Shown here one piece after another: positions 10,947 to 56,242 of a DNA stretch of 64,000 nucleotides. The DNA is from Alphaproteobacteria bacterium. Lineage in GTDB: Bacteria; Pseudomonadota; Alphaproteobacteria; JACAEB01. Position 1 is the first letter of the stretch. Each line of letters starts with the position of its first letter. The stretch lies in assembly GCA_024236075.1 (NCBI GenBank), contig JACKLE010000006.1, forward strand, positions 23,908 to 87,907, given 5' to 3'. The notes under the pieces were generated by a model. The model had not been told where the DNA came from, searched no databases, and saw nothing but the letters and a program-made list of their open reading frames with translations. The position numbers and the translations under genes are program-made.

Positions 10947-10957
10947 CCGCGCACCTC

Positions 10958-26825: not shown

Positions 26826-29003
26826 ATGGGGAACCCGAAAAAGATTGCAGCATGGGCGGTGCTCGGGCTCGGCGCGCTCGCCGCGGCCGGGCCGGCGCAA
26901 GCCATAGACCAGATCGTCGTCACCGCGCAAAAGCGTGCCGAGGCCCTGAGCGAGGTTCCGCTGGCGGTCACCGCCCTCTCGGGCGAAGAGGCCGACCGGC
27001 TCGGCCTCGACAGCACGCTGGGGCTCGCGGGCCACGTGCCCGGAGTGGCGATCGGCCAGAACTCGGGCGAGGGCGATTTTCCGTTCATCTCGATCCGCGG
27101 CGTCACCATGCGCGACTTCGCGGACACGAACGAGAGCCCGTCGGCCGTCTATCTCGACGAGTTCTACAAAGCCAATCTCATGGGGCTCGACAGCCAGATC
27201 TTCGATGTGGAGCGCATCGAGGTTCTGCGCGGGCCGCAGGGCACGCTCTACGGCCGCAACGCGACGGGCGGCGTCGTCAAATATGTGACGCGGAAGCCGG
27301 GCGAGGCCTTCGAGGGCCATGCCTCCGCCTCGGTCGGCGAGTACGGCCGCGTCAAGCTCGAGGGTGCCGCCGGCGGGCCCCTGGCGCCGGGCCTCGCCGG
27401 CCGCCTCTCGATCCTGCACCATCGGCACGACGGCTACACGAGGAACATCTATCCCGGTGCGGACGACGGCAACGCGCTCGACGTGACGGCCGTGCGCGGC
27501 CAGCTCGCCTACCGCCCTTCGGCGGACCTCAAGGTCTCGCTCCTCGTGCAGAACTATCTCAACGACAACGATGCGGGAAACATGTTCTCGCACCGCGTGG
27601 TCGGGGTCGATCCGGTCACGGGCCTCGCCGTGCCGGCCGCGAGCGCGCTCGCGACGGATTCGTTCGGCTATCGCGATCCGACGCCGGGCGATGCGCGCGA
27701 CACCAACTCGAACCGCGACATCTATCTCGATGTGAAGCAGCTCACGGCCGTCGGCACGGTCGAGTGGACCCTCGGCGAGATCGCGCTCACATCCGTGACC
27801 GGCTACGAGAAGACGAGCAAGGACGCGCTCTTCGACAGCGATTCGAGCCCCAATCCGCGCGGCACGGAGACCCATCCCGACGGAGTCGAGTTCGCCGAGG
27901 AGCTGCGCCTCGCGGGCCGCCTCGGCACCGTCGACTGGCTCGCCGGCATCTATTATTTCAACTACGACATTTCCGGATATCAGCGCCGCCAGACCTCGGC
28001 GGCCGGACCGCGCCCGCCCGTCTTCTTCGGGCTCCAGACCGAAAGCTGGGCGGCCTTCGCCAGCCTCGACGTGCCGATCACGGACAGATGGAGCTTTTCG
28101 GGCGGGCTGCGCTACACCGCCGACGACAAGGACTATGCGCTCTTCAACAGCGACTTCGGCGTCGTCTTCAACAAGTCGACCGCGGGCGAGGCCGCGACGC
28201 GAAGCGACGACAATCTGAGCTTCGACGCCCGCCTCGCCTACAGGCCCGCGCCGGGGCATCTCGTCTACGCCGGCATTGCGCGCGGCTTCAAGGGCGGGAC
28301 CTTCAATGTCGGCTTCACGCCGATAAGCGCCGACGCGATTCCGGTCGAGCCGGAGCGGCTCACGAGCTACGAGGTCGGACTCAAATCCGCGTTCTTCGAC
28401 GAAAGGCTCCGCCTCGACCTTTCGGGCTTCCGCTACGACTATGCCGACTCGCAGGCCTTCCAGTTCGACGGGCGCACCTTGAGCGCGACCACGTTCAACC
28501 GCGACGCGGAAATCTGGGGCGCCGAGCTGGAGGCCTCCGCCGCCCCCGCCGAGGGCCTCGATTTGCGACTCGTCGGAGCCTGGCTCGACGCGACCTTGAA
28601 GGACGTCGAGCTGCCCGGTCCCTCCTTCCTCGGCGGCATCGTGGTGGACCGGCGCATGCCGCTCGCCCCGCGATGGAGCTGGACCGGCCTCGTGCGTTAC
28701 GCCTTTCCGCTCTCCTGGGGCGGGTCGATCGCGTTGCAGGGCGACGTCGCCTACAAGTCCGAGCAATATTTCGACGCCTTCAACAGCCCGAGCCATCGTG
28801 AGGACGCCTATGCGGTCGGGAATGCCCGCGTGTCGTGGCTGAGCCCGGACAAGAAGCTCGAGCTCGCGGTCTGGGCGGAGAATATTTGGGACACGGAGTA
28901 CCGGACCTACGCCTTCGACCTTTCCTTCCTCGGCCTCGCGACGGATGTCTGGGGCAAGCCGCGATGGGTCGGCGCGACGGCGACCTATCGCTTCGGAGGC
29001 TGA
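26826..29003 (+). CDS. TonB-dependent outer-membrane receptor
   Basis: ORF track 26826..29003(+). Signal peptide MGNPKKIAAWAVLGLGALAAAGPAQA, TonB-box-like IDQIVVTAQKR, plug motifs (RGPQGTLYGRNATGG), 22-strand barrel-length C-terminal region. Confidence 0.85.
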   Translation: MGNPKKIAAWAVLGLGALAAAGPAQAIDQIVVTAQKRAEALSEVPLAVTALSGEEADRLGLDSTLGLAGHVPGVAIGQNSGEGDFPFISIRGVTMRDFADTNESPSAVYLDEFYKANLMGLDSQIFDVERIEVLRGPQGTLYGRNATGGVVKYVTRKPGEAFEGHASASVGEYGRVKLEGAAGGPLAPGLAGRLSILHHRHDGYTRNIYPGADDGNALDVTAVRGQLAYRPSADLKVSLLVQNYLNDNDAGNMFSHRVVGVDPVTGLAVPAASALATDSFGYRDPTPGDARDTNSNRDIYLDVKQLTAVGTVEWTLGEIALTSVTGYEKTSKDALFDSDSSPNPRGTETHPDGVEFAEELRLAGRLGTVDWLAGIYYFNYDISGYQRRQTSAAGPRPPVFFGLQTESWAAFASLDVPITDRWSFSGGLRYTADDKDYALFNSDFGVVFNKSTAGEAATRSDDNLSFDARLAYRPAPGHLVYAGIARGFKGGTFNVGFTPISADAIPVEPERLTSYEVGLKSAFFDERLRLDLSGFRYDYADSQAFQFDGRTLSATTFNRDAEIWGAELEASAAPAEGLDLRLVGAWLDATLKDVELPGPSFLGGIVVDRRMPLAPRWSWTGLVRYAFPLSWGGSIALQGDVAYKSEQYFDAFNSPSHREDAYAVGNARVSWLSPDKKLELAVWAENIWDTEYRTYAFDLSFLGLATDVWGKPRWVGATATYRFGG

Positions 29004-29152
29004 GCGGGGGCGGGACGGGCGCGGCCGGCGACGGGTTGCGCGGCATCGCCCGATGCCGGAGCATCGCGAGGCGTTCGCCCGCCCGGGCCGGCTACCCGGC
29101 GCCGGCGGCGCGAGCGCAGGGGTCCACCCGCCCGAACCGACGATGGAGCGAC

Positions 29153-32100
29153 ATGCCGACCGTTCTCAGCCCGGCCGAGGCCCTCGGCCTTTCCGGGGCC
29201 GCATTGGACGGGCGCGTTCAGCGCGCCGTGCATCATATCGGCGACGCCACCTTCCGCCGGCTCGCGGAGCGCATGCAGGCGGACGCGCTCGCGAGCGACA
29301 TGATCTATGAGCGCGACGGTGCGCGCGAGCCGATCCGCATCCTTCTGCGCCCGCTGCTCGCCATGCCCGAGCAGCTCAGCTATGTGCACCATGTCTGCTT
29401 CACGCTGACGGAAGCGCTGAAGCGCCTGCCCCAGCTCTGGTTCGACGATCCCGACGCGCGCCGATGCCTCGCGCTCGGCGCGGACGAGGAGGCATGGTTC
29501 CGCGACGCCTGGACGCCGGCGCATCAGCGCAACAATCCGATCTATGGGCGCCTGGACGCCGTCTGCGACTTCACGGGCGCGGCCTGGCAGGATTCCTTGC
29601 GCTTCATGGAGGCCAATCTCTCCGGGGTCGGCGGAATTCACTACTCGCCCCTCGCCGAGCAGCTCGTCATGCGCGACATCGTGCCGACGCTGCGCGCCCA
29701 CGATCCCGGGCTCGATCTGGAGCTGCCGCGCGACCAGCGCGAGCTGTTCCTCCAGGTCCTCATCGACCATGCCCGCGCCATCGGCCGGGGCGCCTGCAAT
29801 GTCTGCTTCGTCGAGCCCATCTATGTGCACGACGGGCCGGACGAGCAGTCCGTCCTTAGCAGATATCTCGAGGAGCGCCATGCGCTCACCACCGCCCATG
29901 CCGATCCGCGCGATCTCACGGTCAGGGGCGACGACGTCTTCCACAAGGACGTGCGCGTCGATCTCGCCTACCGCGACTACGAGCTGCGCGATCTCGTCGC
30001 GCTCGAGCGCGAGCTCGGCCGGCGGCTCGACGGCATGCGGCTGCTCTTCCGGCAGAACCGGGTCGTCTCCTCGCTCGTCGGGGATTTCGACCACAAGAGC
30101 TGCCTCGAGATCCTCACCGACCCCGTGCTCGCCGAGCGCCATTTCGGCATGGAGGAGGCACGCGTCTTCCGGCGCCACGTGCTCTGGACACGGATCGTCT
30201 CCGAGCGGCGGACGAGCCTGCCGCATCGCGAGGAGGGCGACCTCGTCGACTTCGCGAGGCGCCATCGGGAGGAGCTCGTCCTGAAGCCCAATCGGGGCTA
30301 TGGCGGCAGGGGCGTCGTCTTCGGCGCGGCGATCGGCCAGGGGGAATGGGAGCGCCTCATCGGCGAGGCCGCGGCGGCGGCCGACGATCCCGAGCGCTCA
30401 TGGGTCGTGCAGTCGGCGACGCGCCTGCCCGTGCACGAATTTCCCGTGCTCGGAGAGGACGGGCGCGTGTTCGGCGAGCCCTTCTACGCGGTCATGGGAT
30501 TCACGGCGACCGACAGCGGGCTCGGCGTCGTCTGCCGCGTGTCGCAGAAGCAGGTCGTGAACATCGCCCAGCGCGGTGGGATGGCCGCCGTTCTCGTGGC
30601 GCGCGCGCCGGGCGAGCTGCGCATCCCCAAGCGCCCCGTCAAGGCCGGGGCCGAAGCGACGCCCGGCGTGCGCGCCGAGATCGGCGAGCTGCGGCGGCTC
30701 GACCAGACGATCGCGCTCCTGGGATGGGACGAGGAGACCATGCTGCCGGCCGCGGCGCGCGCCGAGCGCGGCGACCAGCTCGCCTCGCTCGAGGCGCTGC
30801 GGCACAATCTTCTGACCTCGGATCGTCTCGGCGACCTCATGGAGGAGGCAGCGCTCGAGACGGAGGGCGATCCGCGCTGGACGCGGGAGCTCGCGCTCCT
30901 GCGCCGATCCCGGCGCCAGGCCCTCGCCTTGCCCGAGGAGCTGATCCGCGCGTTCGCGCAGGCGAAATCGCGCGCGCTCGGGGCCTGGGAGGAGGCGCGG
31001 GCTCAGGACGACTTCGCCGTGTTCGCGCCCGCGTTCGAGACGGTCCTCGGTCAGGCGCGCGAGCGGGCGCAGGCGCTCGCTCCGGGCGAGGAGCTCTACG
31101 ACGCCGCGCTCGAGGATTTCGAGCCCGGCATGACCCGCGCGCGGCTCGATCCCGTGCTCGGCGAGCTGCGCGACCGGCTCGCGCCGCTCGTTCGCTCGTC
31201 CGCGGAGCAAAGCGCGTCGTCGGCGCCTTCGCCCGAAGGCCGGATGGTTCCCGAGGCGGCGCAGTGGGAGCTCTGCCGGGACCTTCTGGCCGCGATCGGC
31301 TTCGACTTCGCGCGCGGGCGCCTCGACCGGTCGACGCATCCCTTCACGCTGCTCGCCGGCGCGAACGATGTGCGGCTGACGATCCGTGTGCACGAGGACA
31401 ATGTGGCGTCGACGATTCTCACCACGCTGCACGAAGGGGGACACGCCCTCTACGATCAGGGACTGACGCAGGGCGATCGCGACTGCCTCCTGAGCGACGC
31501 GCCGAGCATGGGGCTGCACGAGTGCCAGGCCCGCCTGTGGGAGAACCATGTCGGTCGGCTCGGCGCCTTCTGGGCGCATTTGCTGCCGGCGCTGCGCGCG
31601 CGGTCCGGGGCCGCGATGGACGGGCTCGACGCCGACGCCTTCCGCCGCGCCGTCAATCGCATTCGTCCCTCGCTCATCCGCGTCGACGCCGACCCGGTCT
31701 CCTATCATCTGCACATCTTCATGCGCTACGAGCTTGAGATCGCGCTCTTCTCCGGCGCTCTCGCCGTTCGGGATCTGCCCGCCGCCTGGCGGGAGCGGAG
31801 CGCGGCGCTCATCGGCGCCGCGCCGGCCTGCGACCGCGAGGGCGTGCTGCAGGACGTCCACTGGGCGCAGGGGCTTTTCGGCTACTTCCCGTCCTACACC
31901 CTAGGGAGCCTCTATGCGGCGCAGCTCGTGGAGGCCTATGAGCGCGATCATGCGCTTGCGGACGAGATCGGGCGCGGCGATTTCGCGAGCCTGCGCGGCT
32001 GGCTGGCCGAGCGCGTCTACGCCCACGGGCAGCTATACTCGGCCGAGGAGGTCGTCTTGCGGGCGACCGGCAAGGGCCTCGACGCCGGCGCCTTTCTGCG

Positions 32101-32176
32101 CCACATCGAGAGGACCGCCGACGGGCCGTCCGGGGCGGGTCAGACGGCGTCGCGCAGAGGCTCGCCGCGCAGATAG
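29153..32176 (+). CDS. Fusion protein: N-terminal circularly permuted ATP-grasp amidoligase domain + C-terminal M32 (Taq-type) zinc carboxypeptidase
   Basis: In-frame ATG inside track ORF 28835..32176 (no stop for 1007 codons). N-terminal half carries CP-ATP-grasp-like blocks (NPIYGRLDAVCDF...FMEANLSGVGG; LVLKPNRGYGGRGVVFG; SWVVQSATRLPVHEFPVLGEDG). C-terminal half carries M32 motifs (LLGWDEETMLP, HPF, HEGGHALY, DVHWAQG, GYFPSYTLG). Confidence 0.7.
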   Translation: MPTVLSPAEALGLSGAALDGRVQRAVHHIGDATFRRLAERMQADALASDMIYERDGAREPIRILLRPLLAMPEQLSYVHHVCFTLTEALKRLPQLWFDDPDARRCLALGADEEAWFRDAWTPAHQRNNPIYGRLDAVCDFTGAAWQDSLRFMEANLSGVGGIHYSPLAEQLVMRDIVPTLRAHDPGLDLELPRDQRELFLQVLIDHARAIGRGACNVCFVEPIYVHDGPDEQSVLSRYLEERHALTTAHADPRDLTVRGDDVFHKDVRVDLAYRDYELRDLVALERELGRRLDGMRLLFRQNRVVSSLVGDFDHKSCLEILTDPVLAERHFGMEEARVFRRHVLWTRIVSERRTSLPHREEGDLVDFARRHREELVLKPNRGYGGRGVVFGAAIGQGEWERLIGEAAAAADDPERSWVVQSATRLPVHEFPVLGEDGRVFGEPFYAVMGFTATDSGLGVVCRVSQKQVVNIAQRGGMAAVLVARAPGELRIPKRPVKAGAEATPGVRAEIGELRRLDQTIALLGWDEETMLPAAARAERGDQLASLEALRHNLLTSDRLGDLMEEAALETEGDPRWTRELALLRRSRRQALALPEELIRAFAQAKSRALGAWEEARAQDDFAVFAPAFETVLGQARERAQALAPGEELYDAALEDFEPGMTRARLDPVLGELRDRLAPLVRSSAEQSASSAPSPEGRMVPEAAQWELCRDLLAAIGFDFARGRLDRSTHPFTLLAGANDVRLTIRVHEDNVASTILTTLHEGGHALYDQGLTQGDRDCLLSDAPSMGLHECQARLWENHVGRLGAFWAHLLPALRARSGAAMDGLDADAFRRAVNRIRPSLIRVDADPVSYHLHIFMRYELEIALFSGALAVRDLPAAWRERSAALIGAAPACDREGVLQDVHWAQGLFGYFPSYTLGSLYAAQLVEAYERDHALADEIGRGDFASLRGWLAERVYAHGQLYSAEEVVLRATGKGLDAGAFLRHIERTADGPSGAGQTASRRGSPRR

Positions 32177-33929: not shown

Positions 33930-34062
33930 GGGCGCGCCGGCCGCCTCTTTTCGCCGTCCGGTAGGCGGGACCGCGTGCCACAACCTGCGCGCGACATTAA
34001 GCCAGCATTAACCCTAATATTGAGACCTAGGGCGATAGCCGAAGCCACGCACGGGTATCGCC

Positions 34063-36126
34063 ATGCTCGATCCGATTCCGTCCCGTCAGGGTAAATGGCC
34101 GCGCGCGCTCGCCTTTTCGTTCGCGACGGTCGTCGGGGCTCTTCTCGCCGCCGCAGCGGCCGACAAGGCCGGCGCGGTCGCGACGCACGAGGCCGACGCG
34201 CTCGCGGATATGAGCATCGAGGACCTTCTCAAGGTCGAGATCACCATCGCCTCGAAGAAGTCCGAGCAGCTCGCCTCGGTGCCCGCCGCGATCTACGTGA
34301 TCACCGCCGACGAGATCGCCCGCTCGAGCGCAACCACCCTCGCCGATCTCCTGCGCATGGTTCCGGGCCTCGAGGTGGCGTCCCTCGACGGAAACAAGTG
34401 GGCCGTGAGCGCGCGGGGCTCGAACGAGCGCTTCGCGCGACGCCTTCTCGTCCTTCAGGACGGCCGCACCCTCTACTCGCCGCTCTATTCGGGAGTCTTC
34501 TGGGATTCCTCCGATCTCGTCCTCGACAACATTTCGCGCATCGAGGTGATCCGTGGCCCGGGGGCCAGCATCTGGGGCGCGAATGCGGTCAACGGCGTCG
34601 TCAACGTCATCACGAAATCGGCGGCCGAGACGAAGGGCGTCTATGCCAAGGCCGAGGCGAGCGACCACGGCGACCAGATCTATTCCGCCCGCTATGGCGC
34701 CGCGCATGGCGACCTCGTGGACTACAACCTCTCCATGAAGTTCCGCACCCATCCCGATTCCGACGCGACGGCCAATGCGAACGATGCCTGGCAGGCGTTC
34801 CGCTTCTCCGCGCGGACGGACTGGAAGCTGCCGGACGGCGGCAAGCTGACGGTTTCCGGCGGCTTCCTCGACGGCACGGTCGAGACGCGCCGGCCGGTCG
34901 TGCTCCTCGCGCCTCCATATGCCTCGGTGGTGAATTCCGAGGACAACGTTCTCGGCGGCCATCTTCTCGCCCGCTGGGAGGCGCCGAAATCCGACCGGAT
35001 GGGCTGGTCGGTCCAGGGATTCTGGGAAAAGACCTCGCGCGAATATCTCGACGGCGAGCTGAACTACGACGTCTTCGACGTGGAGCTACAATCGGCATTT
35101 CGCCTGACGGACTCCACGCAGGCCGTTATGGGCGCCGGCTACCGGATCGTTTTCGACGAGGTCGCCGGGTCGAGCTCGCTCATGATTCGCGACTACAACG
35201 CCGAGCGAGATCTCATCAGCGCCTTCGTGCAGATCGACCAGGGTCTCTTCTCGAACGGAACGAGGCTCATCCTCGGCACCAAGATCGAAAACAACGACTT
35301 CACCGGCACGGAGATTCAGCCTACGGCGCGCCTCATGGTTCCCGTCGGCCGCTTCAATCTTTGGGCGGGCGTCTCGCGCGCCGTCCGCACGCCCTCGCGC
35401 GGCGAGCTTGACGCGATCACGCCGCTCGCGGTGGTACCTCCGGGCACGCCCCAAAACCCCGGATTCCTGCCGCTGCTCGTCGAGTTCGAGGGCGCTGCCG
35501 CGCTGGATTCCGAGGTTCTGACCGCCTACGAGGCGGGCGTGCGCGGACGGCTCACGGACGAGATCTGGATCGACGCCACCGCATTCCTCAACGAGTACAA
35601 CGATACGGTCGACGGACAGCTCGGCGCGAACCGCGTCGATCTCCTCGCGGCGATTCCGCACGTGGTGCAGCCGATCAATCTCACCAATTCCGGCGGCCTC
35701 GAGGTCAAGGGCTTCGAGGTGGTGCTCGATTGGGAGCCGACGAGCGCGCTCGGTCTTCGCGGCTTCTACGGCTATCTCGACGAAAACCGCGACACGGCCA
35801 GCCTGGCGATTCTCCAGGGAGCCGCGCGGGGCGGCAACGACGCGCCCATCCACCAGGCCGGGCTGCGCGTCAGCGCCCGGCTCGCCGACGGCGTCGACTT
35901 CACCGCGATGTCGAAATATGTCGGCGAAATCGAGGGCCAAAATCTCAAGGACTATGTCGACCTCGACCTTAAGCTCGCCTGGCGCGTTTGCGAGAGGGCG
36001 ACCGTCTCGATCACGGGCAACAATCTCATCGACGCGCCGCGCACCGAGTTCCGCAGCTCCGATTTGCCGCTCTTCGAGACGGAGGTCGAACGGTCGGTAT
36101 TCGGCGGAATCGAAGTCCGGTTCTAG
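34063..36126 (+). CDS. TonB-dependent outer-membrane receptor
   Basis: ORF track 34063..36126(+). Signal peptide, plug domain (DLLRMVPGLEV...IEVIRGPGASIWGANAVNGVVNV), barrel, C-terminal aromatic residue (…IEVRF). Confidence 0.85.
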   Translation: MLDPIPSRQGKWPRALAFSFATVVGALLAAAAADKAGAVATHEADALADMSIEDLLKVEITIASKKSEQLASVPAAIYVITADEIARSSATTLADLLRMVPGLEVASLDGNKWAVSARGSNERFARRLLVLQDGRTLYSPLYSGVFWDSSDLVLDNISRIEVIRGPGASIWGANAVNGVVNVITKSAAETKGVYAKAEASDHGDQIYSARYGAAHGDLVDYNLSMKFRTHPDSDATANANDAWQAFRFSARTDWKLPDGGKLTVSGGFLDGTVETRRPVVLLAPPYASVVNSEDNVLGGHLLARWEAPKSDRMGWSVQGFWEKTSREYLDGELNYDVFDVELQSAFRLTDSTQAVMGAGYRIVFDEVAGSSSLMIRDYNAERDLISAFVQIDQGLFSNGTRLILGTKIENNDFTGTEIQPTARLMVPVGRFNLWAGVSRAVRTPSRGELDAITPLAVVPPGTPQNPGFLPLLVEFEGAAALDSEVLTAYEAGVRGRLTDEIWIDATAFLNEYNDTVDGQLGANRVDLLAAIPHVVQPINLTNSGGLEVKGFEVVLDWEPTSALGLRGFYGYLDENRDTASLAILQGAARGGNDAPIHQAGLRVSARLADGVDFTAMSKYVGEIEGQNLKDYVDLDLKLAWRVCERATVSITGNNLIDAPRTEFRSSDLPLFETEVERSVFGGIEVRF

Positions 36127-42019: not shown

Positions 42020-42925
42020 ATGGCACACGCTCGACCGTCGGAACGCCCTTCGGGCCGTGCACCGCTCTTTCTCATGGCGAGCCCGCGCCATTTCGAGGTC
42101 GCCTACGCGATCAATCCCTGGATGCGGCCGGACATTTGGGCGGACGACAAGGCGGGCCACGGGCGCGCCGCGGGCGCCGCCTTCGGCGCGCTCGAGGAAG
42201 GCCTCCTCGCCGCCGGCGGCGAGGTGCGGCTTGTCGACGGCGCGGCGGGCCTGCCCGATATGGTGTTCACGGCCAATGCGGCCGTCGTGCTCGACGGCCG
42301 CGCGCTCCTCGCGCGCTTTCGCCATCCCGAGCGGCGCGGCGAGGAGGCGGAGTTCGCGCGCCTGTTCGAGGGCTTCCGGCGGGAGGGGCTCTTGAGCGCC
42401 GTCGAGAGCCTTCCCGAAGGACTCTTTCAGGAGGGCGCGGGCGACTGCGTGTGGGACGAGGCGCGCCAGCTCTTCTGGGGCGGATACGGCCCGCGATCGA
42501 GCCTCCAGTCCCATCGCGCCGTGGCGGGCTTCTTCGACCGCGAGGTCGTTTCGCTCGAGCTCGCGACGCAGCGCTACTACCATCTCGACGTCGCCCTGTC
42601 GGCCTTGCCGGGCGGCGAGGTTCTCTACTACCCGGCGGCCTTCGCGCCGGCCGCGCGCCATGCCATTGCCGATCGCGTTCCTCCGGACAGCCTTGTCGCG
42701 GTGGGCGAGCCGGAGGCCGCGGCCTTCGGGCTCAATATCGTCTGTGTGGGTCGCGATCTCGTCATGGCGCGCACGACGCCCCGGCTTCGGGCGATCCTCG
42801 CCGAGAGGGGCTACGCCGTGCGCGAGGTCGATCTCGATCCCTTCCTCCTTGCCGGCGGCGCGGCTTTTTGCCTGACCTTGCGCCTCGACCGGCGCTCCGG
42901 AGACGGAGAAAGGACGCCCGCATGA
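42020..42925 (+). CDS. Amidinotransferase-superfamily enzyme (DDAH/arginine-deiminase-like, Cys nucleophile in GGAAFCLT)
   Basis: Internal ATG (GGAG RBS) of track ORF 41834..42925. [24 protein letters not shown] and C-terminal GG...C.T fit the guanidino-group-modifying enzyme fold. Divergent from putA. Confidence 0.65.
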
Positions 42926-44163
42926 GCCCCATCGCCACGCCGCCTTCGCCGGCGGCCGAGCTCATCGCCACGGAGCACGAGCTCGGCGCCCACAACTACA
43001 AGCCGCTCGACGTCATGCTGACCCGCGGCGAGGGCGTGTGGCTCTGGGACATCGACGGCAATCGCTATCTCGATTGCCTGGCCGGATATTCGGCCGTCAA
43101 TCAGGGGCACTGCCATCCGCGCATCCTCAAGGCTCTGGTCGAGCAGGCCGGACGCCTGACGCTGACCTCGCGCGCCTTCCGCAACGATCGCCTGGCGCCC
43201 TTCTACGAGAAGCTCTCGGAGCTCACCGGCAGCCACAAGATCCTGCCCATGAACTCGGGCGCCGAAGCCGTCGAAAGCGCGATCAAATCCGTGCGCAAAT
43301 GGGGCTACGAGGTGAAGGGCGTGCCGGAGGACGAAGCCGAAATCGTCGTCTGCGCCGACAATTTTCACGGCCGCACGATCGCCATCGTCGGCTTCTCGAC
43401 CGATCCGTCCGCGCGGCGCCATTTCGGGCCGTTCGCGCCGGGATTCCGCGTCGTGCCCTTCGGCGACATCGCGGCGCTCGAGGCGGCGATCACGCCCAAG
43501 ACCGTCGCCTTTCTCGTCGAGCCGATCCAGGGCGAGGCCGGCGTCATCATTCCGCCGGCGGGCTATTTCGCCGCCGTGCGCGAGCTCTGCACGCGGAAGG
43601 GCGTCACGCTCATCCTCGACGAGATCCAGACCGGCCTCGGGCGAACGGGCGAAATGCTGGCCGAGGAGCACGAGGGCATCGAGGCCGACGTGACGCTCGT
43701 GGGCAAGGCCCTGTCCGGCGGCTTCTATCCGATCTCGGCGGTGCTCTCGAACAGCGAGGTTCTCGGCGTGCTGCGGCCCGGCGAGCACGGCTCGACCTTC
43801 GGCGGCAATCCGCTCGCCTGCGCCATCGCGGTCGCCGCGCTCGACGTGCTCGTGGAGGAGGATCTCATCGGCAATGCGGCCCGCCTCGGGCCCTACGTCC
43901 TGGAGGCGCTCAAGGCGCTCCCAAAATCTGTCGTGAACCGGGTGCGCGGGCGGGGGCTGATGATTGCGCTCGACATCGAGCCCGCGGCCGGCTCGGCCCG
44001 CCAATATGCCGTGGCCCTGGCGCGCGAGGGCCTGCTCTGCAAGGAAACGCACGGGCAGACGCTGCGCATCTCGCCGCCTCTCGTCATCACCAAGGACCAG
44101 GCCGATTGGGCCATCGAGCGTCTCGGGAAGGTCCTGTCGCGCGAGGCGGCCGCCGGCGCCTGA
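42922..44163 (+). CDS. rocD: Ornithine--oxo-acid aminotransferase
   Basis: Last 413 codons of track ORF 42136..44163. ATG 42922 overlaps the upstream stop (ATGA). [49 protein letters not shown] is near-diagnostic for OAT. PLP lysine region [11 protein letters not shown]. Confidence 0.9.
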
Positions 44164-44170
44164 AGCGAGC

Positions 44171-44200
44171 GGCCCCGGTGCGCGGGCGCGCACCGGGGCC
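44171..44200. terminator. Perfect 14-bp palindrome GGCCCCGGTGCGCG-gg-CGCGCACCGGGGCC, a candidate bidirectional terminator between convergent genes
   Basis: Begins 8 nt after the rocD stop. GC-rich stem. No obvious U-tract, as is common in high-GC genomes. Confidence 0.4.
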
Positions 44201-44502
44201 CATGTCACCTTGGAGCTTTCGTCAGTCTACGTGCCAGGCGGGCTTCACCGAGACGCTCGATGGCCCGTCGGCGTCGGCGGCAGCGATGCCGCCGGAACGC
44301 GATCGGCGCATGACTATTCCTCCCCGACGGCAGGCACGGTCCCCCGTGCGCGCACAGGTCGGCCCGCCATTCGATTGTTTGTATAGGAACCGACGCCAGA
44401 CGTGATCGCAGCCTATCGACGCGACCTGGCCGCGCCGAATTGGGCTATATCCGCGAATTGACCCCAGTCAAGGGAGGCTTCAGTCCTAGGCGGCCGGTTC
44501 GT

Positions 44503-45666
44503 CTATTGTACGGCGGCGTTGACCGCGCCGCCCGTTCCGCGTTCGGAGGAAATGCCCCAGAGCAGGCGGCCGCCCTGATCCACGTCGAGCGTGGCGCGCT
44601 TCAGGGCCGCGCTTTCCTTCAATGCCGCATAGGCCTCCGGCAGATCGAGGAAGCGCTCGGGGATCGCGCGCGTGCCCCAGTTCACGGCCTTGTGCTCGAA
44701 CTCGTTCGTCGCGAAGCGAGTCCAGGTGAGGTTGAGGCCGGCGAAATCCTGTGGGCTGACGAAATCGCCGCGGATGTCGAAGTCGTTGTATTTGTTGCGC
44801 TCGATCTGAAGGCGCACGAGGATCGCGTCTTCGCGCCAGCTCGCGCGCGTATCCTTGACCATCTCGCCGACGACGGCCGGCACGTCCTTCGGGAGCCGCG
44901 GCCCGGAATCCGTCAGCGCAAAGAGCGGCTGCTGGTGCACGCGCGTCCAGACGGTGCGCCCGAGCCGGCCCTCGAAGACGAGCGTGTCGTGGTCGGGCCG
45001 CGAGAACACGCCTTCGTCTTCGAAGATGTTGGTGCGCGACTTCAGCGTGTAGTGGCGCCCGGTAAAGGTCATCCTGCCGGCATGTCCGTACACGGCATCG
45101 TGGATCGTGTAGGTGCCGTCGTCGCGGATCTCAAGGACCTGCCTCCAGGTGCCGGTCGGCGGCCCCAGATTGAGGAAGATCTCCCAGAGGCCATAGGCGC
45201 CCTCGCTCGCGGCGAGGTCCTCGTCCTGGGCGGCGGGCTTCTCCTCGGTGAAGCGGTCGACGACGCGGTCGCTCTCCGCCGGCCCCGCCTTTTGGGTAGG
45301 CGCCGGGCCCGCGGGCGTCGGCGCGGAGGGCCAGAGGAAGATCGCGAGGAGCGCGACGAGAAGCGCGCCGAGCGCCGAAGGCAGCGCCCAGGCGGGCAGG
45401 CCGAGCCGCTCGAAGGCTTCGAGCAGGCCCCGCATCGGGTTGGGCCGTGGGGGAACGGGCTCCGGCCGCCTGGCGCCCTTGTCGGCGAGGTCGTCCTTCG
45501 CGGCGCTGCCGCCGTCGGGGGGCGTATCCGATTTTTGCGGCGCCCAGGCCTTGGCGCCGCCGCCGGCCGCCGGCGAGCCGCATTGCGGGCAGCGCTCGGA
45601 GCTGGCGAGGTCGAAAATATGGCCCTCCTCGCAAAATTTGAGGTTCTGCGCTCCGCCCTCCGCCAT
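44503..45666 (-). CDS. Zinc-ribbon / single-TM / Pro-rich / periplasmic-domain protein; hypothetical
   Basis: Track ORF 44503..45729(-). Start at MAEGGAQNLKFCEEGHIFDLASSERCPQCGS (C..H...CxxC ribbon). Pro-rich linkers flank one TM (LPAWALPSALGALLVALLAIFLW). ~250-aa C-terminal domain of unknown family. Confidence 0.55.
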   Translation of the reverse strand: MAEGGAQNLKFCEEGHIFDLASSERCPQCGSPAAGGGAKAWAPQKSDTPPDGGSAAKDDLADKGARRPEPVPPRPNPMRGLLEAFERLGLPAWALPSALGALLVALLAIFLWPSAPTPAGPAPTQKAGPAESDRVVDRFTEEKPAAQDEDLAASEGAYGLWEIFLNLGPPTGTWRQVLEIRDDGTYTIHDAVYGHAGRMTFTGRHYTLKSRTNIFEDEGVFSRPDHDTLVFEGRLGRTVWTRVHQQPLFALTDSGPRLPKDVPAVVGEMVKDTRASWREDAILVRLQIERNKYNDFDIRGDFVSPQDFAGLNLTWTRFATNEFEHKAVNWGTRAIPERFLDLPEAYAALKESAALKRATLDVDQGGRLLWGISSERGTGGAVNAAVQ

Positions 45667-45694
45667 GCCGTGGTCCCCCTCCTGGACGGCTCCG

Positions 45695-46552
45695 TCAGCG
45701 CTTGCGCCGCGAGCGCGGGCCGGAACCATAGTCGCCGAACGGCGCGTCGCGGCGGCGCACGGCCTCGCGGAAACCGACTTCGCGCGCCAGCGTCACGAAG
45801 TCGTCCCCTTCCTGCGTGTGCCGGGCGACGCCGTCAAGAAAGATGCCAACCGTGCGGGTCGACTGCACGCCCATATTCTCCGCCATCTGGTTGCAATAGA
45901 GCTTGATCATCTGAAGCTGATTGAGCGGCACCAGCGCCATGCGCTTCGCGAGCGCCGTCGCCTCGTCGAGGAGGCGCTCAGGCGGCACGATTTCGTGCAC
46001 GAGGCCGATCTCCTTCGCCTTGGGCGCGGAAATCTCGTCGCCCGTCAGGAGATAGCGCTTGGCGTTCTCGAAACCGACGCGGAACACCCACATCGGCGTC
46101 GTCGGCACGCCCCACAGGCGCGAGGTCGGATAGCCGAACACGGAGTCCTCCGCCGCGACGATGAGGTCGGACCAGAGCACGAGATCCGTGCCCCCGCAGA
46201 TGCACCAGCCCTGCACGGCGGCGACAGTGGGCTTGGAGGCGTACCAGAGCTTCTGATAGACCGAGACGAAGCCCGACATCATGCGGTAGTCGGCCATCGA
46301 GTCCCATTTGCGCGTGCGCCCTTCCTTCTCGGACTGCGCCTCGGTCGACCAGTCCAGTCCGTACCCGGCGCAAAAGGCGGGCCCCTCCGAGCGCAGCAGG
46401 ATGACCTTGACGCCCTTGGCGGCGTCGGCCTCGTCGATCGCCTGTCCGAGCTCGCTCGCCAATTCATGCGTGATCGTGTTGTAGGCCTCGGGCCGCGTCA
46501 GCACGATCGTGCGCACGCCGTCCGCCGTCTCCGTCCGCAAGGTCGTTCCCAT
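45695..46552 (-). CDS. Enoyl-CoA hydratase/isomerase (crotonase) family protein
   Basis: ORF track 45695..46552(-). ...VILLRSEGPAFCAGYGLD... is the oxyanion-hole segment. ...AAVQGWCICGGTDLVLWSDLIVAAEDSVFGYP... Confidence 0.8.
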   Translation of the reverse strand: MGTTLRTETADGVRTIVLTRPEAYNTITHELASELGQAIDEADAAKGVKVILLRSEGPAFCAGYGLDWSTEAQSEKEGRTRKWDSMADYRMMSGFVSVYQKLWYASKPTVAAVQGWCICGGTDLVLWSDLIVAAEDSVFGYPTSRLWGVPTTPMWVFRVGFENAKRYLLTGDEISAPKAKEIGLVHEIVPPERLLDEATALAKRMALVPLNQLQMIKLYCNQMAENMGVQSTRTVGIFLDGVARHTQEGDDFVTLAREVGFREAVRRRDAPFGDYGSGPRSRRKR

Positions 46553-46576
46553 CGCGTCGTCTCCTTCCCTCTGGGC

Positions 46577-47401
46577 TCACCCGCCCGCCGTGTTTATCGC
46601 GCTCTTCTCGGCGGCGACATCGGCCGCGCTCGGATCCTCGATCGTGAAGTCGGCACCATCGTCCGTCGTCGTCTGAACGACCCGCGAGACATATTGCCAG
46701 GGGTTCGCCGCGCTCAGCGTGCTGACGTAGCGCCGGCCGGACTTGGCGTGCAGGACGTTCGTGACGACCTGGCAGCTCCCGATCGCGTCCGCGTTCAGGA
46801 GCTTGACGTAGACCTTGTACTGCGTCTGCGCGACCGAGCTCGTCACGATCCACATCTCGGGCGGGCCGTCGTCCCACTCGGCACGCAGGTCGCCGGCCCA
46901 CTTCGAATTCTGCTCGCGGCGCGGGTCCATGGGCTCGGGCAGCGATCCGTCGACGCCCTTCTGCGTGTCCCAGAGGTAGAGATCGATATCGGCGCCGGGG
47001 CAGGCCCAGTTGACGCTCACGGCGAAGGCGCGCCGCTGCAGCAGCGATTTCTGCTGTTCCTTCAGGCGCTCGATCTCCTGCTCCGCCTGGTCGAGCTGCT
47101 CGCGCAGCTTGTCGAGGTCGCTCTCGGCCTTCTTGACCTCCCGGCCGGCCTCGCTCACCGCGCGCGTGATGTCGCTCGACTCGATCCCGGCACGGCGGAA
47201 CGAGCTCTCGATCTCCTTGAGGCGCGCCTGCACCGATTGAAGCTCGGCCTTGATCGCCTCGACGTTCTCCTTGTTGCCGGGGTCGGAATTGTAGTAGCGC
47301 GCGAGCACGATCATGATGATGAGGAAAGCCCCCATCGCGCCCGAGATGACGTCCATCATCGAGAGATTGAAGATGTTGATCTCGCGGCTCTTGCGGCGCA
47401 T
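46577..47401 (-). CDS. Atypical ExbD/TolR-family protein: N-terminal TM with conserved Asp, long coiled coil, ~140-aa beta-rich C-terminal domain
   Basis: Last 274 codons of track ORF 46577..48409. REINIFNLSMMDVISGAMGAFLIIMIVL matches the ExbD/TolR TM (conserved D). Then heptad-rich NKENVEAIKAELQSVQARLKEIE...ERLKEQQKSL, then a Cys/Trp-containing domain. Confidence 0.65.
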   Translation of the reverse strand: MRRKSREINIFNLSMMDVISGAMGAFLIIMIVLARYYNSDPGNKENVEAIKAELQSVQARLKEIESSFRRAGIESSDITRAVSEAGREVKKAESDLDKLREQLDQAEQEIERLKEQQKSLLQRRAFAVSVNWACPGADIDLYLWDTQKGVDGSLPEPMDPRREQNSKWAGDLRAEWDDGPPEMWIVTSSVAQTQYKVYVKLLNADAIGSCQVVTNVLHAKSGRRYVSTLSAANPWQYVSRVVQTTTDDGADFTIEDPSAADVAAEKSAINTAGG

Positions 47402-47406
47402 GCGCG

Positions 47407-48270
47407 CTATCCGAGATAGACGCGGTTGATGAGATTCTTCAGGCAGTAGTGCCCTGCCTGATTGAGCGCCATCTCCTCCTCCTTCTGCACGATGTGCTGG
47501 ATGAGGACGAGGATCGCCGACCACAGGAGCGCGATGACCGTGGTGTCGAAGGCGACGGCGAGGCTTCCCGTGATCGCCTTCAGATCCATCGAGTCCGGAT
47601 TGACGAAGGCGAGGGCGCCCGCGATGCCCACCACCGTGCCGATGAAGCCGACGGTCGGAATGACCCAGATGAGGTAGCGGATGAGCTGATAGCGCAGGTC
47701 GAGGCGCTGTCCGATGAGCTCGAGGCTCGCATTGACGACGTTGACCGCCTGGTCGACGGAACGGCTGGTCTGCAGGCGGAGGATGGCGAGATCGATGAGC
47801 GAGGGCAGGAAGCCGTTGTCGCCGTCGAAGCTCTTCGCCACGCGCCGGCGGATGGCGCCGAGATCCTTGATCTGAAGCACCGTCTCCTCGTCCTCGGGCA
47901 GGAAGCCCTGGCCGATGAAGGCGCGCTCGAAGCGCGCCACGCGAGAGCGGACGTAGAGCTCGGCGAGCCCCAGCGCGAAGAGGACGTGCATGAGGTTCTG
48001 GATCGACAGGGGATAGCCGAAGACGGGACTGCCGCGCCCGAACCAGAACGCGCCCGCGCGCCCCGTGCCCGCGACGAGCCCGAGGACGAGCACGAGGAGA
48101 ACGGCCCCGGCCGCGACGGCGACGAGGATCGCCATGCGGGGCGGGAGCCCCTGCGCCTTCAGGGCCAGCGTATGCTCGGCGAAGAGGACGCGCTTCAGGC
48201 CCGCCGCCGCGCGGCTCTTCGGCCCCGCGGCCTCTATCGGGGCCTCGCCCTCTGCCGGTGTCGTCTCCAT
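47407..48270 (-). CDS. MotA/TolQ/ExbB proton-channel family protein
   Basis: Last 287 codons of track ORF 47407..48957. Three TM segments with the TolQ/ExbB C-terminal pattern ...IPTVGFIGTVVGIAGALAFV...SLAVAFDTTVIALLWSAILVLI... Stops 5 nt before the ExbD-like start. Confidence 0.75.
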   Translation of the reverse strand: METTPAEGEAPIEAAGPKSRAAAGLKRVLFAEHTLALKAQGLPPRMAILVAVAAGAVLLVLVLGLVAGTGRAGAFWFGRGSPVFGYPLSIQNLMHVLFALGLAELYVRSRVARFERAFIGQGFLPEDEETVLQIKDLGAIRRRVAKSFDGDNGFLPSLIDLAILRLQTSRSVDQAVNVVNASLELIGQRLDLRYQLIRYLIWVIPTVGFIGTVVGIAGALAFVNPDSMDLKAITGSLAVAFDTTVIALLWSAILVLIQHIVQKEEEMALNQAGHYCLKNLINRVYLG

Positions 48271-48438
48271 GGCCGCCCCCGTTTGGAAGTGCTTCGGCGC
48301 GAAGTATAGCCGCTTCGCCGCGTTTGCCAGCGTTTCCGGGGCGGCGGGCTTCCCGCCTTCGGCGCATTGCCACCGGGCATGACCCGAGTCCATACTCCCG
48401 CCCCGACAAAGGCCCTCACCGGGAGGCACGGCCGCGCG

Positions 48439-48972
48439 ATGACCACGACAGAATATTCCGTGAAGGCGAGCGCCATTCTCGACGAGCTCGGTAGGCTCGG
48501 CGTCACCGACATCGTGACCGTGCCGGACTACGTGATGATGTCCGTGCACCACAAGGTCGAGGACGGCTATTTGAAGGGTGTGCGGAACATCAACTGCGCG
48601 ACCGAGGACGAGGTCTTCTGCGTCTGCATGGGCCTCTGGATCGGCGGGCGGGTGCCAGTGGCGCTGATGCAGAACCAGGGGCTCTTCGCGGGCTCGAACG
48701 CGCTGCGCTCGGCGGGCCTCCATGTCGGCCTGCCGCTCCTCATCCTCGCCGGCCAATGGGGGCGCGAGCTCGCCAATCTGGGCAAGGACCCGGGCGGCTC
48801 GGCGCGCCGCGAGGTGCGCATGACCGAGCCCCTGCTCGACGCCATGGAGGTGCCGCGCTACCGCCTCGAGCATCCGCGCGACATCGGCGTCATCGGCGAG
48901 GCCTTCAGGCGCGCGCAGAAGGAATCGAAGCCGGTGTGCGTCCTCGTCGGCGCGCATACGGCCTATGCGTGA
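48439..48972 (+). CDS. TPP-dependent decarboxylase alpha subunit (sulfopyruvate/phosphonopyruvate decarboxylase ComD-like; TPP_enzyme_N)
   Basis: Internal ATG of track ORF 48367..48972. ...TDIVTVPDYVMMSVHHKV...CATEDEVFCVCMGLWIGG... is a pyrimidine-binding half-domain of split TPP enzymes. Confidence 0.65.
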   Translation: MTTTEYSVKASAILDELGRLGVTDIVTVPDYVMMSVHHKVEDGYLKGVRNINCATEDEVFCVCMGLWIGGRVPVALMQNQGLFAGSNALRSAGLHVGLPLLILAGQWGRELANLGKDPGGSARREVRMTEPLLDAMEVPRYRLEHPRDIGVIGEAFRRAQKESKPVCVLVGAHTAYA

Positions 48973-48989
48973 GAGATGAGGATTTCACG

Positions 48990-49595
48990 ATGAGCATGCT
49001 CAACCGCGAGGCCGTCGGCCTCATCGCCGCCCGCCGCGAGGGCGCGGTCGTCGTCACGACCATGTCCTCGATCTTCTCGGTGATGGATCTCTCGCCCTCG
49101 CCGCTCAATGTGCGGGTGGCTCCGCTCATGGGCGGCGCGTCCTCCATCGGCCTCGGCATCGCCCTCGCGCGTCCCGATCGCAAGGTCATCGTGCTCGACG
49201 GCGACGGCTCGCTCGCCATGCAGCTCGGCACGCTCCTCACCGTCGCCGAAGCGGCGCCCGCGAACTACTACCATTTCGTCTTCCACAACGGGCTTCTCTA
49301 CGAGGGCGGCGGGCGCGTGCACATCGCGGGCGCGCAGAAGCCGGACTTCTGCGGCCTCGCGCGCTCGGCCGGCTATCGCTCCGTGCACGATTTCTCGACG
49401 AAGGAGTCGCTGGAGAAAGGTCTGCCCGGCCTTCTCGCCGAACGGGGGCCGGTCTTCGCGCGCCTGGAGATCGCGCTGCCCGCGACGCCCCGCTGGTCGG
49501 AGAACAATCCGCAAGGGGAGCTTCCCGACTGGTGGTTCGCGCAGATGCCGGACGATGCCCGCGCCTGCAAGGAGGCGCTCGCGCGGGCGCGCTGA
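48990..49595 (+). CDS. TPP-dependent decarboxylase beta subunit (ComE-like; TPP_enzyme_C)
   Basis: In frame within track ORF 48756..49595. MSMLNREAVG start with RBS. GDGS TPP-diphosphate-binding motif (...KVIVLDGDGSLAMQLGTL...). Confidence 0.65.
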   Translation: MSMLNREAVGLIAARREGAVVVTTMSSIFSVMDLSPSPLNVRVAPLMGGASSIGLGIALARPDRKVIVLDGDGSLAMQLGTLLTVAEAAPANYYHFVFHNGLLYEGGGRVHIAGAQKPDFCGLARSAGYRSVHDFSTKESLEKGLPGLLAERGPVFARLEIALPATPRWSENNPQGELPDWWFAQMPDDARACKEALARAR

Positions 49596-54437: not shown

Positions 54438-55988
54438 TTACGGGGTCGGTACGACCTTCGTGTCGCGAATCTCCTGCACGAAGCCCGCCTCGCCCGCGCC
54501 CGTCTTGATGTAGCGCAGCGCCATCAGCACGCCGGGCGCCCCGCTCGTCGCGTTCTCGAGATAGGAGCACGAGGCCGGACCCTGCGGCACCGGGATCGGG
54601 TTGTTCGACCCGTCATAGCCCTCGTTCCACGGCGGGCCGGATTCGTAGTCCGCGACGATGTAGTCGCGCACGACCGGCTTGTAGGGCCAGGTTCCCTGGC
54701 GGACGAAGTCGGGATAGTCCGATCCGTCGCGCTCGAGCGTGTCGACCTCGAGCACCATGCAGCCGAGATGGATCGCGCGGCCCGTGACGTCGTAGACTTG
54801 GCCGTTCTCGTCGAAAGTTACGCCCCCGTCGAAATTCCACCATTGCGGCGTGACGATCGCGAGAAGGGCGCCGTCATGGGTCGCGAACTCGATCTGCGTG
54901 AGGTCCGTCGCATCGCTGCCGGTCAGCAGCTCCGCATCGATCGACGAGCCGAGCGGACCTTCATAGTACCATTCCCAGTCCTTCGCATCGAGCGAGACTT
55001 CGTCCTCCTCGTCGAGCATGTCCGTCGAAAAGACGTAGAGGTGGCTCTTGGAGCTGTCGTATTCGCCTTCCTCCGTATACGCCCAGCAATGGGCGGCCAG
55101 GAAGAGCTTCTCGCTCGTCGCGTCGTAGTGGAGCGCCGGCTCGTTCCACCAGTGGCAGAGATCGATGATGCTTTGGTGCGCGGGCGGAATGGACGGTAGC
55201 TGCGTCAGATCGTAGTCCATGCCCCAGACATAGCCATAGCCGTCGATGTTCGCGCCGGCCGCGACGAGCACCTGGGCATTCTCCATGCCATTGCCCTCGT
55301 CGTCGGTGGCGAGACCGGTCAGCGTGGTCGCGGCCGTCACAAGCAGCTTCTGGCTCGGCGTGAACTGGTTCTTGTGCTTGAAACCGCCCCAGCCGCAGGG
55401 ATAGCCCTCGGCCAGAAAATGCTCCGGCGAAAAATGCGTCTGACGCGTGCCGACCCAGAAGCTCTGCCCGTCCTTCGTCACCTTCACGAGGTTCGCCGTT
55501 TCCATGCCCCAGGTGCCAGCCACGCTCTCCGAGGTCTCGGGGTCGATATAGGGCGCGGGCGCCACATCCGGGTAGGTGTCCCACAATATGCCGCCATAGG
55601 GCGAATTGCGGTTCCAGGAGACGCCGTTGGAGCTCGTCGCATAGTCGATGCGCACGTCCCAGTCGCCGCCCTCGCCGCGACAGCCGGGGTTGGCGTCGGG
55701 ATTGTCGTTGTCGTAGAGGTGCGAATAGAGGACCACGTAGCCGGTCACTCCGGACACGGTGTGCTTGCGGATCGCCGGATCGGCGAATCCGCGGAACCAG
55801 GACGTTCCGCCGTTTTCGCCGGCCATGCCCGGGTCGATCGTCGCGCCGCTGATCGAGAGCAAGGGGCAGTGGTTCGCCCCGCTCGACGCGTCCGGATCGC
55901 AAGTCTTCGTCACCGTCTGCGCCGAGGCCGGCGCGGCTATCACCAAGCCGGCGCCCGCAGCGAGCGCCAGCTTCCAAAGAAGCTTCAT
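54438..55988 (-). CDS. Secreted hypothetical protein, W/Y/D/G/T-rich (possible beta-propeller glycosidase-like fold)
   Basis: ORF track 54438..55988(-). Signal peptide MKLLWKLALAAGAGLVIAAPASA. Strong SD (GGGAGGA) upstream. No family motif recognised. Confidence 0.6.
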   Translation of the reverse strand: MKLLWKLALAAGAGLVIAAPASAQTVTKTCDPDASSGANHCPLLSISGATIDPGMAGENGGTSWFRGFADPAIRKHTVSGVTGYVVLYSHLYDNDNPDANPGCRGEGGDWDVRIDYATSSNGVSWNRNSPYGGILWDTYPDVAPAPYIDPETSESVAGTWGMETANLVKVTKDGQSFWVGTRQTHFSPEHFLAEGYPCGWGGFKHKNQFTPSQKLLVTAATTLTGLATDDEGNGMENAQVLVAAGANIDGYGYVWGMDYDLTQLPSIPPAHQSIIDLCHWWNEPALHYDATSEKLFLAAHCWAYTEEGEYDSSKSHLYVFSTDMLDEEDEVSLDAKDWEWYYEGPLGSSIDAELLTGSDATDLTQIEFATHDGALLAIVTPQWWNFDGGVTFDENGQVYDVTGRAIHLGCMVLEVDTLERDGSDYPDFVRQGTWPYKPVVRDYIVADYESGPPWNEGYDGSNNPIPVPQGPASCSYLENATSGAPGVLMALRYIKTGAGEAGFVQEIRDTKVVPTP

Positions 55989-56242
55989 GCTGAGTCCTCC
56001 CGATTCTTCTCCACACGCTTTGTACGGAGCATTGTGGGGCCGGTGATCCGGCCACGGTCATGATTTCCGGTCGCGGCGGGAGCGTCCAATGGCAATTGGG
56101 CCGCCACGCATAACCGTCGGGAATGAAACGGGGGGCTCTTTCGCTCGATGTATTATTGCCGCCCGCCCGAGGCCGGGAGAGCCTGTCGCCGCGCCCGGCG
56201 CGGACGGGCACGACGCAGACCTGTCGCCGAAGCGAAAAAGTC

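Follow-up and report, generated by a model that had tools for sequence, protein, structure and literature searches.

Ion-driven 5:2 membrane motors are a general bacterial means of turning an ion gradient into work. The superfamily includes MotAB, ExbBD, TolQR, AglRQS, GldLM and ZorAB, and its known uses are flagella, the Ton and Tol systems, gliding together with type 9 secretion, and Zorya defence; each further family has shown a new use. Here we analyse a gene cluster that may add another variant to this superfamily. It lies in a 64,000-nucleotide stretch of DNA (the window) on contig JACKLE010000006.1 of an alphaproteobacterial genome assembly (GCA_024236075.1), and it encodes a channel subunit (gene A), an Asp-bearing “axle” protein (gene B) and a bitopic partner with a cytoplasmic zinc ribbon (gene D), to which we refer together as the module. 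Its axle protein has a periplasmic part of new design, and its constant partner is a small zinc ribbon.

In Myxococcus xanthus the AglRQS motor, which is of the TolQR/ExbBD type, works with two bitopic inner-membrane partners, GltJ (zinc ribbon, GYF domain, transmembrane (TM) helix and periplasmic part) and GltG (FHA domain, TM helix and periplasmic part), and both are built alike, with a long disordered linker leading from the cytoplasmic head to one TM helix and then to the periplasmic part (PMC11761067). The same two types of head occur with the motor genes studied here, a zinc ribbon in the window and a zinc ribbon plus an FHA domain in a sister clade. Agl-Glt is the closest analogue of the module; the resemblance is one of design, and we found no sequence homology between the partners. 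The module differs in having no GYF domain, no TonB-C-like domain and no nearby glt genes, in a zinc ribbon that is not detectably homologous by sequence, and in a single protein, B, that combines coiled coil and beta-sandwich where Agl-Glt has an AglQ/AglS pair.

Two further comparisons frame the analysis. The ExbB-ExbD-TonB and TolQ-TolR-TolA systems share with the module the order of channel, Asp-bearing TM protein and bitopic partner with a Pro-rich linker, and their pore Thr and Pro are kept in A and their Asp in B. However, A falls far below the TolQ equivalog cut-off, B does not have the periplasmic domain of ExbD or TolR, and D carries a cytoplasmic zinc ribbon and neither the C-terminal domain of TonB or TolA nor their SHLS/His motif. 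TolQ-like pentamers have also been found, by synteny, paired with vWA proteins that supply their own Asp-bearing transpore helix (PMC12204202). These systems resemble the module in that a partner other than ExbD provides this helix together with a novel periplasmic domain (PMC12204202), but in the module that partner has a coiled coil and a DUF2135-like beta-sandwich, and a third, zinc-ribbon component is present; neither zinc nor coiled coils are mentioned in that study (PMC12204202).

Conservation of the module and its two locus types

Four genes of the window lie together on the minus strand. Gene A (47407-48270) encodes a 287-residue channel subunit of the MotA/ExbB/TolQ superfamily, the putative pentameric part of a 5:2 motor. 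Gene B (46577-47401) encodes the axle protein, 274 residues with a single Asp-bearing TM helix, a coiled-coil stalk and a beta-sandwich head. Gene C (45695-46552) encodes a 285-residue member of the crotonase, or enoyl-CoA hydratase, family, and gene D (44503-45666) a 387-residue protein composed of a zinc ribbon, a linker, a TM helix, a Pro-rich linker and two periplasmic domains. The intergenic gaps A-B, B-C and C-D are 5, 24 and 28 bp. A sequence-only reading of the window had described this co-oriented arrangement and its motifs, and our reading of the open reading frames (ORFs) bears the description out. The close spacing of A and B, with 5 bp between them, is that of motor operons and counts in favour of a motor. 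The GC content at third codon positions (GC3) of the four genes, 0.88-0.92, equals that of the adjoining genes, indicating that all four use the native codon bias. Proteins identical to B and D carry the entries H6923_07720 and H6923_07710, both annotated as hypothetical, in an alphaproteobacterial metagenome-assembled genome.

Two peptide patterns taken from B recovered 44 loci from 185,579 species-representative genomes, and iterative profile searches were run on all ORFs of 46 distinct loci. At about 44 of 185,579 species representatives, a figure limited by the patterns used, the module is rare yet phylogenetically broad. On contigs that carry B homologues, a MotA_ExbB gene stands directly before B and a gene whose product has no Pfam match directly after it. 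We found A in 37 of the 46 loci, most of the others being cut by contig ends or having A elsewhere in the cluster, and a zinc-ribbon protein follows B in 35 of the 46. The order A, B, zinc-ribbon protein occurs in Alpha-, Beta-, Gamma- and Deltaproteobacteria, Bdellovibrionales, Phycisphaerae, Acidobacteriota, Acidimicrobiia, Balneolales and Myxococcota; Spirochaetota are also among the carriers of the module. Genes upstream of A, compared in loci L001, L051 and L052, are unrelated to one another. The earlier proposal of an uncharacterised envelope module built on a MotA/ExbB-type channel thus holds for A, B and D, which keep the same order across phyla, and searches of the accessible literature, whose coverage leaves out most subscription journals, found no description of it.

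Two types of locus can be distinguished, and the element of the partner protein that is constant across them is the zinc ribbon alone. Type I, to which the window belongs, is found also in other Alpha- and Gammaproteobacteria, Bdellovibrionales and Phycisphaerae. In loci of this type the zinc ribbon of the partner is combined with a TM helix and, after it, periplasmic domains; some loci have the partner in duplicate, and in one it carries Sel1 repeats. In type II loci, which form the sister clade and number at least 17, the partner has no TM helix and ends in a C-terminal FHA domain. Because the partners in these loci are zinc-ribbon-FHA proteins without a TM helix, what travels with A and B is the cytoplasmic zinc ribbon. 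In short, the conserved partner of the motor is the zinc ribbon and not the periplasmic part. The sequence-only reading had overlooked the zinc ribbon as the conserved element, and with it the link to the signalling genes that accompany type II loci.

These genes form a cluster that we found in loci L025, L028, L029, L035, L039, L040 and L044 (for example L039:5789-13400). It contains an FHA protein with a C-terminal zinc ribbon, A, B, the zinc-ribbon-FHA protein and PP2C phosphatases. Also present are a trypsin-like protease that has both a TM helix and an FHA domain, a Ser/Thr kinase that bears a zinc ribbon at its N-terminus and in many cases an FGE-sulfatase domain, and a vWA-TM-FHA protein. 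No description of this cluster was found in the searchable literature. A related variant, L056, is located on the 1.33 Mb plasmid pRlBT01d of Rhizobium leguminosarum BT01 (158158-170484 of the record) and comprises a large Ser/Thr kinase on the opposite strand, PP2C, FHA, A and B, with ORFs at 265-3807 (minus), 3945-4769, 4742-5128, 5128-5949, 6001-6738 and 7280-12112 of the locus. There A and B are followed by a 180-residue secreted protein and then by a 1610-residue low-complexity protein, and no zinc ribbon was seen adjoining A-B.

Type I loci show variations of their own. Two tandem zinc-ribbon-TM paralogues follow B at L003:6993-8524, L008:8017-9575 and L021:7885-10280. In the Hyphomicrobiaceae locus L042 the B-like protein has 526 residues, about double the usual length, and in its zinc-ribbon partner nine periplasmic Sel1 repeats replace the domains of D (L042:7001-8578 and L042:8663-10525).

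Features of the three proteins

By its sequence, A belongs to the MotA/ExbB/TolQ superfamily, and its pore signature is intact. It matches Pfam PF01618 (MotA_ExbB) over residues 167-263 with 43.5 bits against a cut-off of 22.9 (3e-11), and scores far below the cut-offs of the NCBIfam equivalogs tolQ (14.8 bits vs 221) and PomA (22 bits vs 341). In a 32-sequence alignment spanning many phyla the mean column identity is 49%, and P205, T212, T243 and T244 are invariant. Alignment by hhalign with E. coli TolQ (E = 1.4e-4) pairs P205, T212 and T244 with TolQ P138, T145 and T178, so that the pore Pro and the two Thr of TolQ are conserved in A, placed on or before its last two TM helices. In the TolQ superfamily these two Thr are the ring that coordinates the Asp of the partner (PMC12204202). 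The longest conserved stretches of A are in a predicted cytoplasmic domain (LPEDD.TVLQ..DLGPIR and GFLP.LID..ILQFQASRSVDQTVSVLNSSLELI.HRVDLRY) and in the last two TM helices, past which the protein continues for only 27 residues. Its best sequence matches in the PDB, all weak, are TolQ (E = 0.007), PomA and MotA. Hydropathy alone suggests that A may have four TM helices, as MotA does.

B has 181 homologues in the protein collection, all of them unannotated and none with a significant Pfam domain. Since they are collinear over 98-100% of the length of B, the long ORF is one gene, as the sequence-only reading had taken it to be, and we reject a split into two. The TM helix (residues 11-36; 47294-47371, minus; codon of Asp17 at 47351-47353), defined from an AlphaFold2 model and the alignment, is a single N-in helix after a basic N-terminus, with Asp17 near its cytoplasmic end in the motif MMDVISG. 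The N-terminal 40 residues are near-invariant, with the consensus MK.RNREINIFNLSMMDVISGAMGAFLIIM..L.RYY, and R6, F11, S14, D17 and Y37 are present in all 60 of the sequences compared.

How far this helix makes B a relative of known axle proteins has to be stated with care. Directly before it stands the motif REINIF, which resembles SEINIV of TolR, and an hhalign alignment of B with TolR pairs REINIFNLSMMDV with SEINIV--PLLDV and sets D17 opposite TolR D23, at a non-significant E = 0.68. A profile of the N-terminal region retrieved no ExbD, TolR or MotB chain from the PDB, and no ExbD family is found among the best 25 of 89 matches of B in Pfam and the best 25 of 57 in NCBIfam, all of which are of coiled-coil type. 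By the AlphaFold2 model and Pfam, B has neither an OmpA-like peptidoglycan-binding domain nor an ExbD-type alpha/beta periplasmic domain. The earlier description of B as bona fide ExbD-like was therefore an overstatement, the resemblance being limited to the Asp-bearing TM helix. That the module is not a canonical ExbBD or TolQR pair is supported by the same findings, namely the low tolQ score of A, the lack of an ExbD or TolR match to B, and the different periplasmic part.

That periplasmic part is modelled with good confidence (pLDDT, the predicted local distance difference test, 87): the TM helix is followed by helices at residues 43-70 and 76-121, a beta-sandwich at 126-255 and a C-terminal helix. 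The region of the two helices (residues 43-121; 47039-47275, minus) is matched by coiled-coil families only and forms the stalk. Its length among homologues ranges from 39 to 126 residues with recurring steps of seven (60, 67, 74, 88, 95, 102, 109), a series that fits a coiled coil. The beta-sandwich (residues 126-255; 46637-47026, minus) is predicted to be periplasmic. Its cysteines, Cys134 and Cys210, covary, both being present in 38 sequences, neither in 22 and a single one in none, which fits a periplasmic disulfide.

The beta-sandwich appears by sequence to be a remote relative of DUF2135, the domain of E. coli YfaP, which belongs to an alpha-2-macroglobulin operon. Alignment with YfaP by hhalign gives a probability of 88% and E = 3e-6 over 70 columns, and the two have in common the motif pattern W...D[IV]DL[HY]V...GPG.E[VI]W...Y.[IV]Y. 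The Pfam profile itself (PF09906) is reached by sister-clade members of the B family only and at 14.6-16.3 bits, under the cut-off of 22 (E = 0.01-0.035), and YfaP differs also in not being linked to a motor. A Foldseek search of the PDB with the model of B gave no match at E <= 0.001, leaving the beta-sandwich without a solved relative.

D matches no family in Pfam (even at E <= 1), in PADLOC or, noise aside, in NCBIfam. Its cytoplasmic zinc ribbon (residues 8-33; 45568-45645, minus) contains C12, H16, C26 and C29, all invariant in relatives, and the motif C-x2-G-H-x-[FY]-D-x6-C-P-x-C is kept in 30 distinct partner proteins from both locus types. Against the PDB, the zinc-ribbon profile finds generic CPxCG zinc knuckles only, and no zinc-ribbon family of Pfam scores above its cut-off. 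A low-complexity linker leads from the zinc ribbon to the TM helix (about residues 92-113; 45328-45393, minus), which is supported by hydropathy (one hydrophobic helix at 95-111) and by a helix at 92-110 in the AlphaFold2 model, and which the positive-inside rule predicts to be N-in; the sequence is Arg-rich before this helix and Pro-rich after it. The periplasmic region (44506-45204, minus), about 230 residues, comprises a predicted all-beta domain (about residues 155-245) and a predicted alpha/beta domain (about 255-387). D is 46% identical to the product of the gene directly after B in L001, and is similar to that of the partner gene after B in L005 in the zinc ribbon and the C-domain. Word-indexed searches with D reached only 5-6 close relatives, even when the low-complexity part was left out; the distant ones were reached through the loci and by profile search. 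Four to six tandem zinc-ribbon motifs of the kind RCENGHFYD......CPYC also occur outside a motor context, in proteins P0170, P0186, P0222 and P0242.

The periplasmic domains of D have a wider distribution, with 239 cluster representatives at E <= 0.001 in a profile search of 1.84 billion representatives. Many of these relatives are secreted stand-alone proteins, and in a few the domains are joined to TIR, caspase, CHAT or Sel1 modules, which suggests that the domains are portable extracytoplasmic binding or sensor modules; the genomic context of one stand-alone relative was uninformative. The two domains also recur separately. P0223 and P0240 have a TIR-TM-domain architecture, P0264 and P0268 are secreted caspases with domain 1, and P0239, P0213 and P0199 combine domain 2 with Sel1.

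A possible motor and the competing explanations

We propose that A, B and D form an undescribed variant of the 5:2 ion-driven membrane motors in which force or a conformational change is coupled to D, a reading to which we give about an even chance of being correct. A pentamer of A would surround a dimer of B, and ion flow via the Asp/Thr site would turn A relative to B. B would be held in the periplasm by its disulfide-stabilised, DUF2135-like beta-sandwich, which would act as an anchor at the end of a coiled-coil spacer. The zinc ribbon of D would engage the strongly conserved cytoplasmic domain of A, and D, being bitopic, would use its TM helix and Pro-rich linker to connect the motor with a target in the periplasm, to which its two domains there bind. 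In this way the working of the motor would be coupled to a conformational or mechanical change in D, and in the sister clade the same zinc ribbon would couple the motor to FHA, Ser/Thr-kinase and PP2C signalling.

More tentatively, we hypothesize that the module represents a distinct class of 5:2 motor, in which the pentamer is read cytoplasmically by a dedicated zinc-ribbon adaptor that is wired either to a bitopic periplasmic protein, as in the window, or to an FHA/Ser-Thr-kinase/PP2C/vWA phospho-signalling network, as in the sister clade. If this is true, the module would tie membrane energisation or the state of the envelope to protein-phosphorylation signalling. The same motor core with two very different outputs poses a testable question, namely what the cytoplasmic face of the motor drives, and the link to FHA, kinase and PP2C clusters would suggest, for the first time, that Ser/Thr phosphorylation controls such a motor or receives its output. 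Experiments are possible in two cultured hosts, Rhizobium leguminosarum BT01 and Lamprocystis purpurea DSM 4197.

Several points weigh against the proposed motor. Its stoichiometry and rotation are inferred, as is the contact of the zinc ribbon with A, and B has no significant match to ExbD, TolR or MotB. The AlphaFold2 model of D, built from six sequences, is too poor for a fold assignment (pLDDT 45.6). Five apparently untruncated loci have no zinc-ribbon ORF. The carriers are nearly all metagenome-assembled genomes and thus come without a phenotype. Finally, the TIR-TM and secreted caspase/Sel1 fusions of the periplasmic domains fit a sensor as well as they fit a role in receiving force.

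Such a sensor could resemble Zorya. The head of B and the periplasmic domains of D would then monitor the envelope or a ligand, and the ion flow or rotation of A-B would be read via the zinc ribbon and, in the sister clade, passed on to the FHA, kinase and PP2C proteins. The position of D's periplasmic domains behind cytoplasmic TIR domains and on secreted caspase/CHAT proteins is typical of sensor modules, and the sister clade is located in a Ser/Thr phospho-signalling cluster. ZorA-ZorB is likewise a MotAB-like 5:2 motor outside motility, envelope-to-cytoplasm signalling is plausible for both, and PADLOC returns weak matches to ZorA2 (7e-5) and, over the TM and coil region of B, to ZorB1 (3e-5). 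However, these matches are confined to the shared channel and TM regions. A does not have the long ZorA-like tail, B does not have the peptidoglycan-binding domain of ZorB, and ZorC/D/E-like genes are absent. The neighbours of the module in the window are housekeeping genes with the same codon bias and form no defence island, and A has no phage match; the only plasmid match is on a 1.3 Mb chromid, so that an association with phages or small plasmids is lacking as well. We consider a sensor of this kind unlikely. Membership in Zorya itself is rejected, on the missing tail, on PADLOC matches that lie in the channel region, and on the lack of any PADLOC match to C or D.

An alternative energiser of the Ton/Tol type, in which D would take the place of TonB or TolA and deliver force to outer-membrane targets, was suggested by the sequence-only reading, which named two TonB-dependent receptors of the window as possible beneficiaries. 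The receptors are there, at 26814-29003 and 34039-36126, which is 15.5 and 8.4 kb from the module, and the topology of D is indeed TonB-like: the protein is N-in and has a single TM helix, then a Pro-rich linker, then a periplasmic domain. Directly after D, L001 has a haem-receptor cluster, and force transducers other than TonB, of vWA type, have recently been proposed (PMC12204202). Against this, D shows no TonB_C or TolA_C domain in Pfam even at E <= 1, and its TM helix has neither the SHLS motif nor a conserved Ser or His; across six relatives the only invariant residues of the TM region are one Ala and one Leu. The SHLS/His motif is a feature of the TM helix of TonB/TolA force transducers (PMC12204202), and we reject a TonB-like reading of D. 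Of about 46 loci, moreover, only 4 have a TonB-dependent receptor within 7 kb, in no fixed arrangement, and the conserved element of the partner is cytoplasmic, the whole partner lacking a TM helix in many lineages and being wholly cytoplasmic in the sister clade. That the receptors of the window are powered by the module is unsupported, and we regard a Ton/Tol energiser as very improbable. The companion observation that tonB, pal, mot/fli and sigma-factor genes are missing nearby was correct; none of these, nor exbD, is found among the scanned ORFs of the window.

Still less probable, in our judgement, is a gliding or surface-motility machine homologous to Agl-Glt. It would account for a TolQR-like motor paired with zinc-ribbon and FHA partners, as AglRQS is with GltJ and GltG, and one Bdellovibrionales and one Myxococcota genome carry the module. 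However, no glt-like genes are conserved nearby, D has no GYF or TonB-C-like domain, and its zinc ribbon has no detectable sequence relation to any solved zinc ribbon; what D has in common with GltJ is the layout alone, with zinc ribbon, linker, TM helix and periplasmic part. Most carriers of the module, moreover, belong to lineages that are not known to glide.

The place of the crotonase is a simpler matter. C is an ordinary member of PRK08272 (NCBIfam, 308 bits vs a cut-off of 257; PF00378, 132.5 bits, 2e-38), and among all ORFs of the 46 distinct loci a crotonase is found near the module in the window only. In the closest relatives (L001, L006, L051 and L052, 46-56% identical in B and D) A, B and D are contiguous without it. 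Together these two facts show the crotonase gene to be a lineage-specific insertion, and C, although probably co-transcribed with its neighbours, is a passenger gene and not a member of the module. Of the four-gene unit proposed by the sequence-only reading, then, A, B and D stand, being co-conserved in the same order across phyla, and the crotonase falls. A functional unit of all four genes, coupling for instance acyl-CoA metabolism to some process of the envelope, is hardly credible, since the shared strand and the gaps of 24 and 28 bp, which do suggest co-transcription, are set against a crotonase in 1 of about 48 loci.

Other features of the window

An AGGAGG-type ribosome-binding site precedes gene D. 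Upstream of A, a consensus scan gave a sigma-70-like promoter match at 48303-48330 (minus) that agrees in 9 of 12 positions, a match alone and no evidence of function. An Rfam scan of 43500-49500 gave no RNA family.

Two adjoining ORFs of 201 residues each (48367-48972 and 48990-49595, both plus) are divergent from A. The first gives no Pfam match at E <= 1e-4 and the second contains a TPP_enzyme_C domain; together they may represent a thiamine pyrophosphate-dependent decarboxylase split in two. Between putA and a class-III aminotransferase gene lies a 301-residue ORF (42022-42925, plus) with no Pfam match at E <= 1e-4, and a 539-residue ORF at 54438-56057 (minus) has a coding-type GC3 and no Pfam family at E <= 1e-5. 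The long ORF at 28802-32176 (plus) matches M32 carboxypeptidases in residues 625-1104 only, and with its 5' part it reaches into the end of the TonB-dependent receptor gene at 26814-29003. Its real start is probably far downstream, and the extension is likely an artefact of the high GC content.

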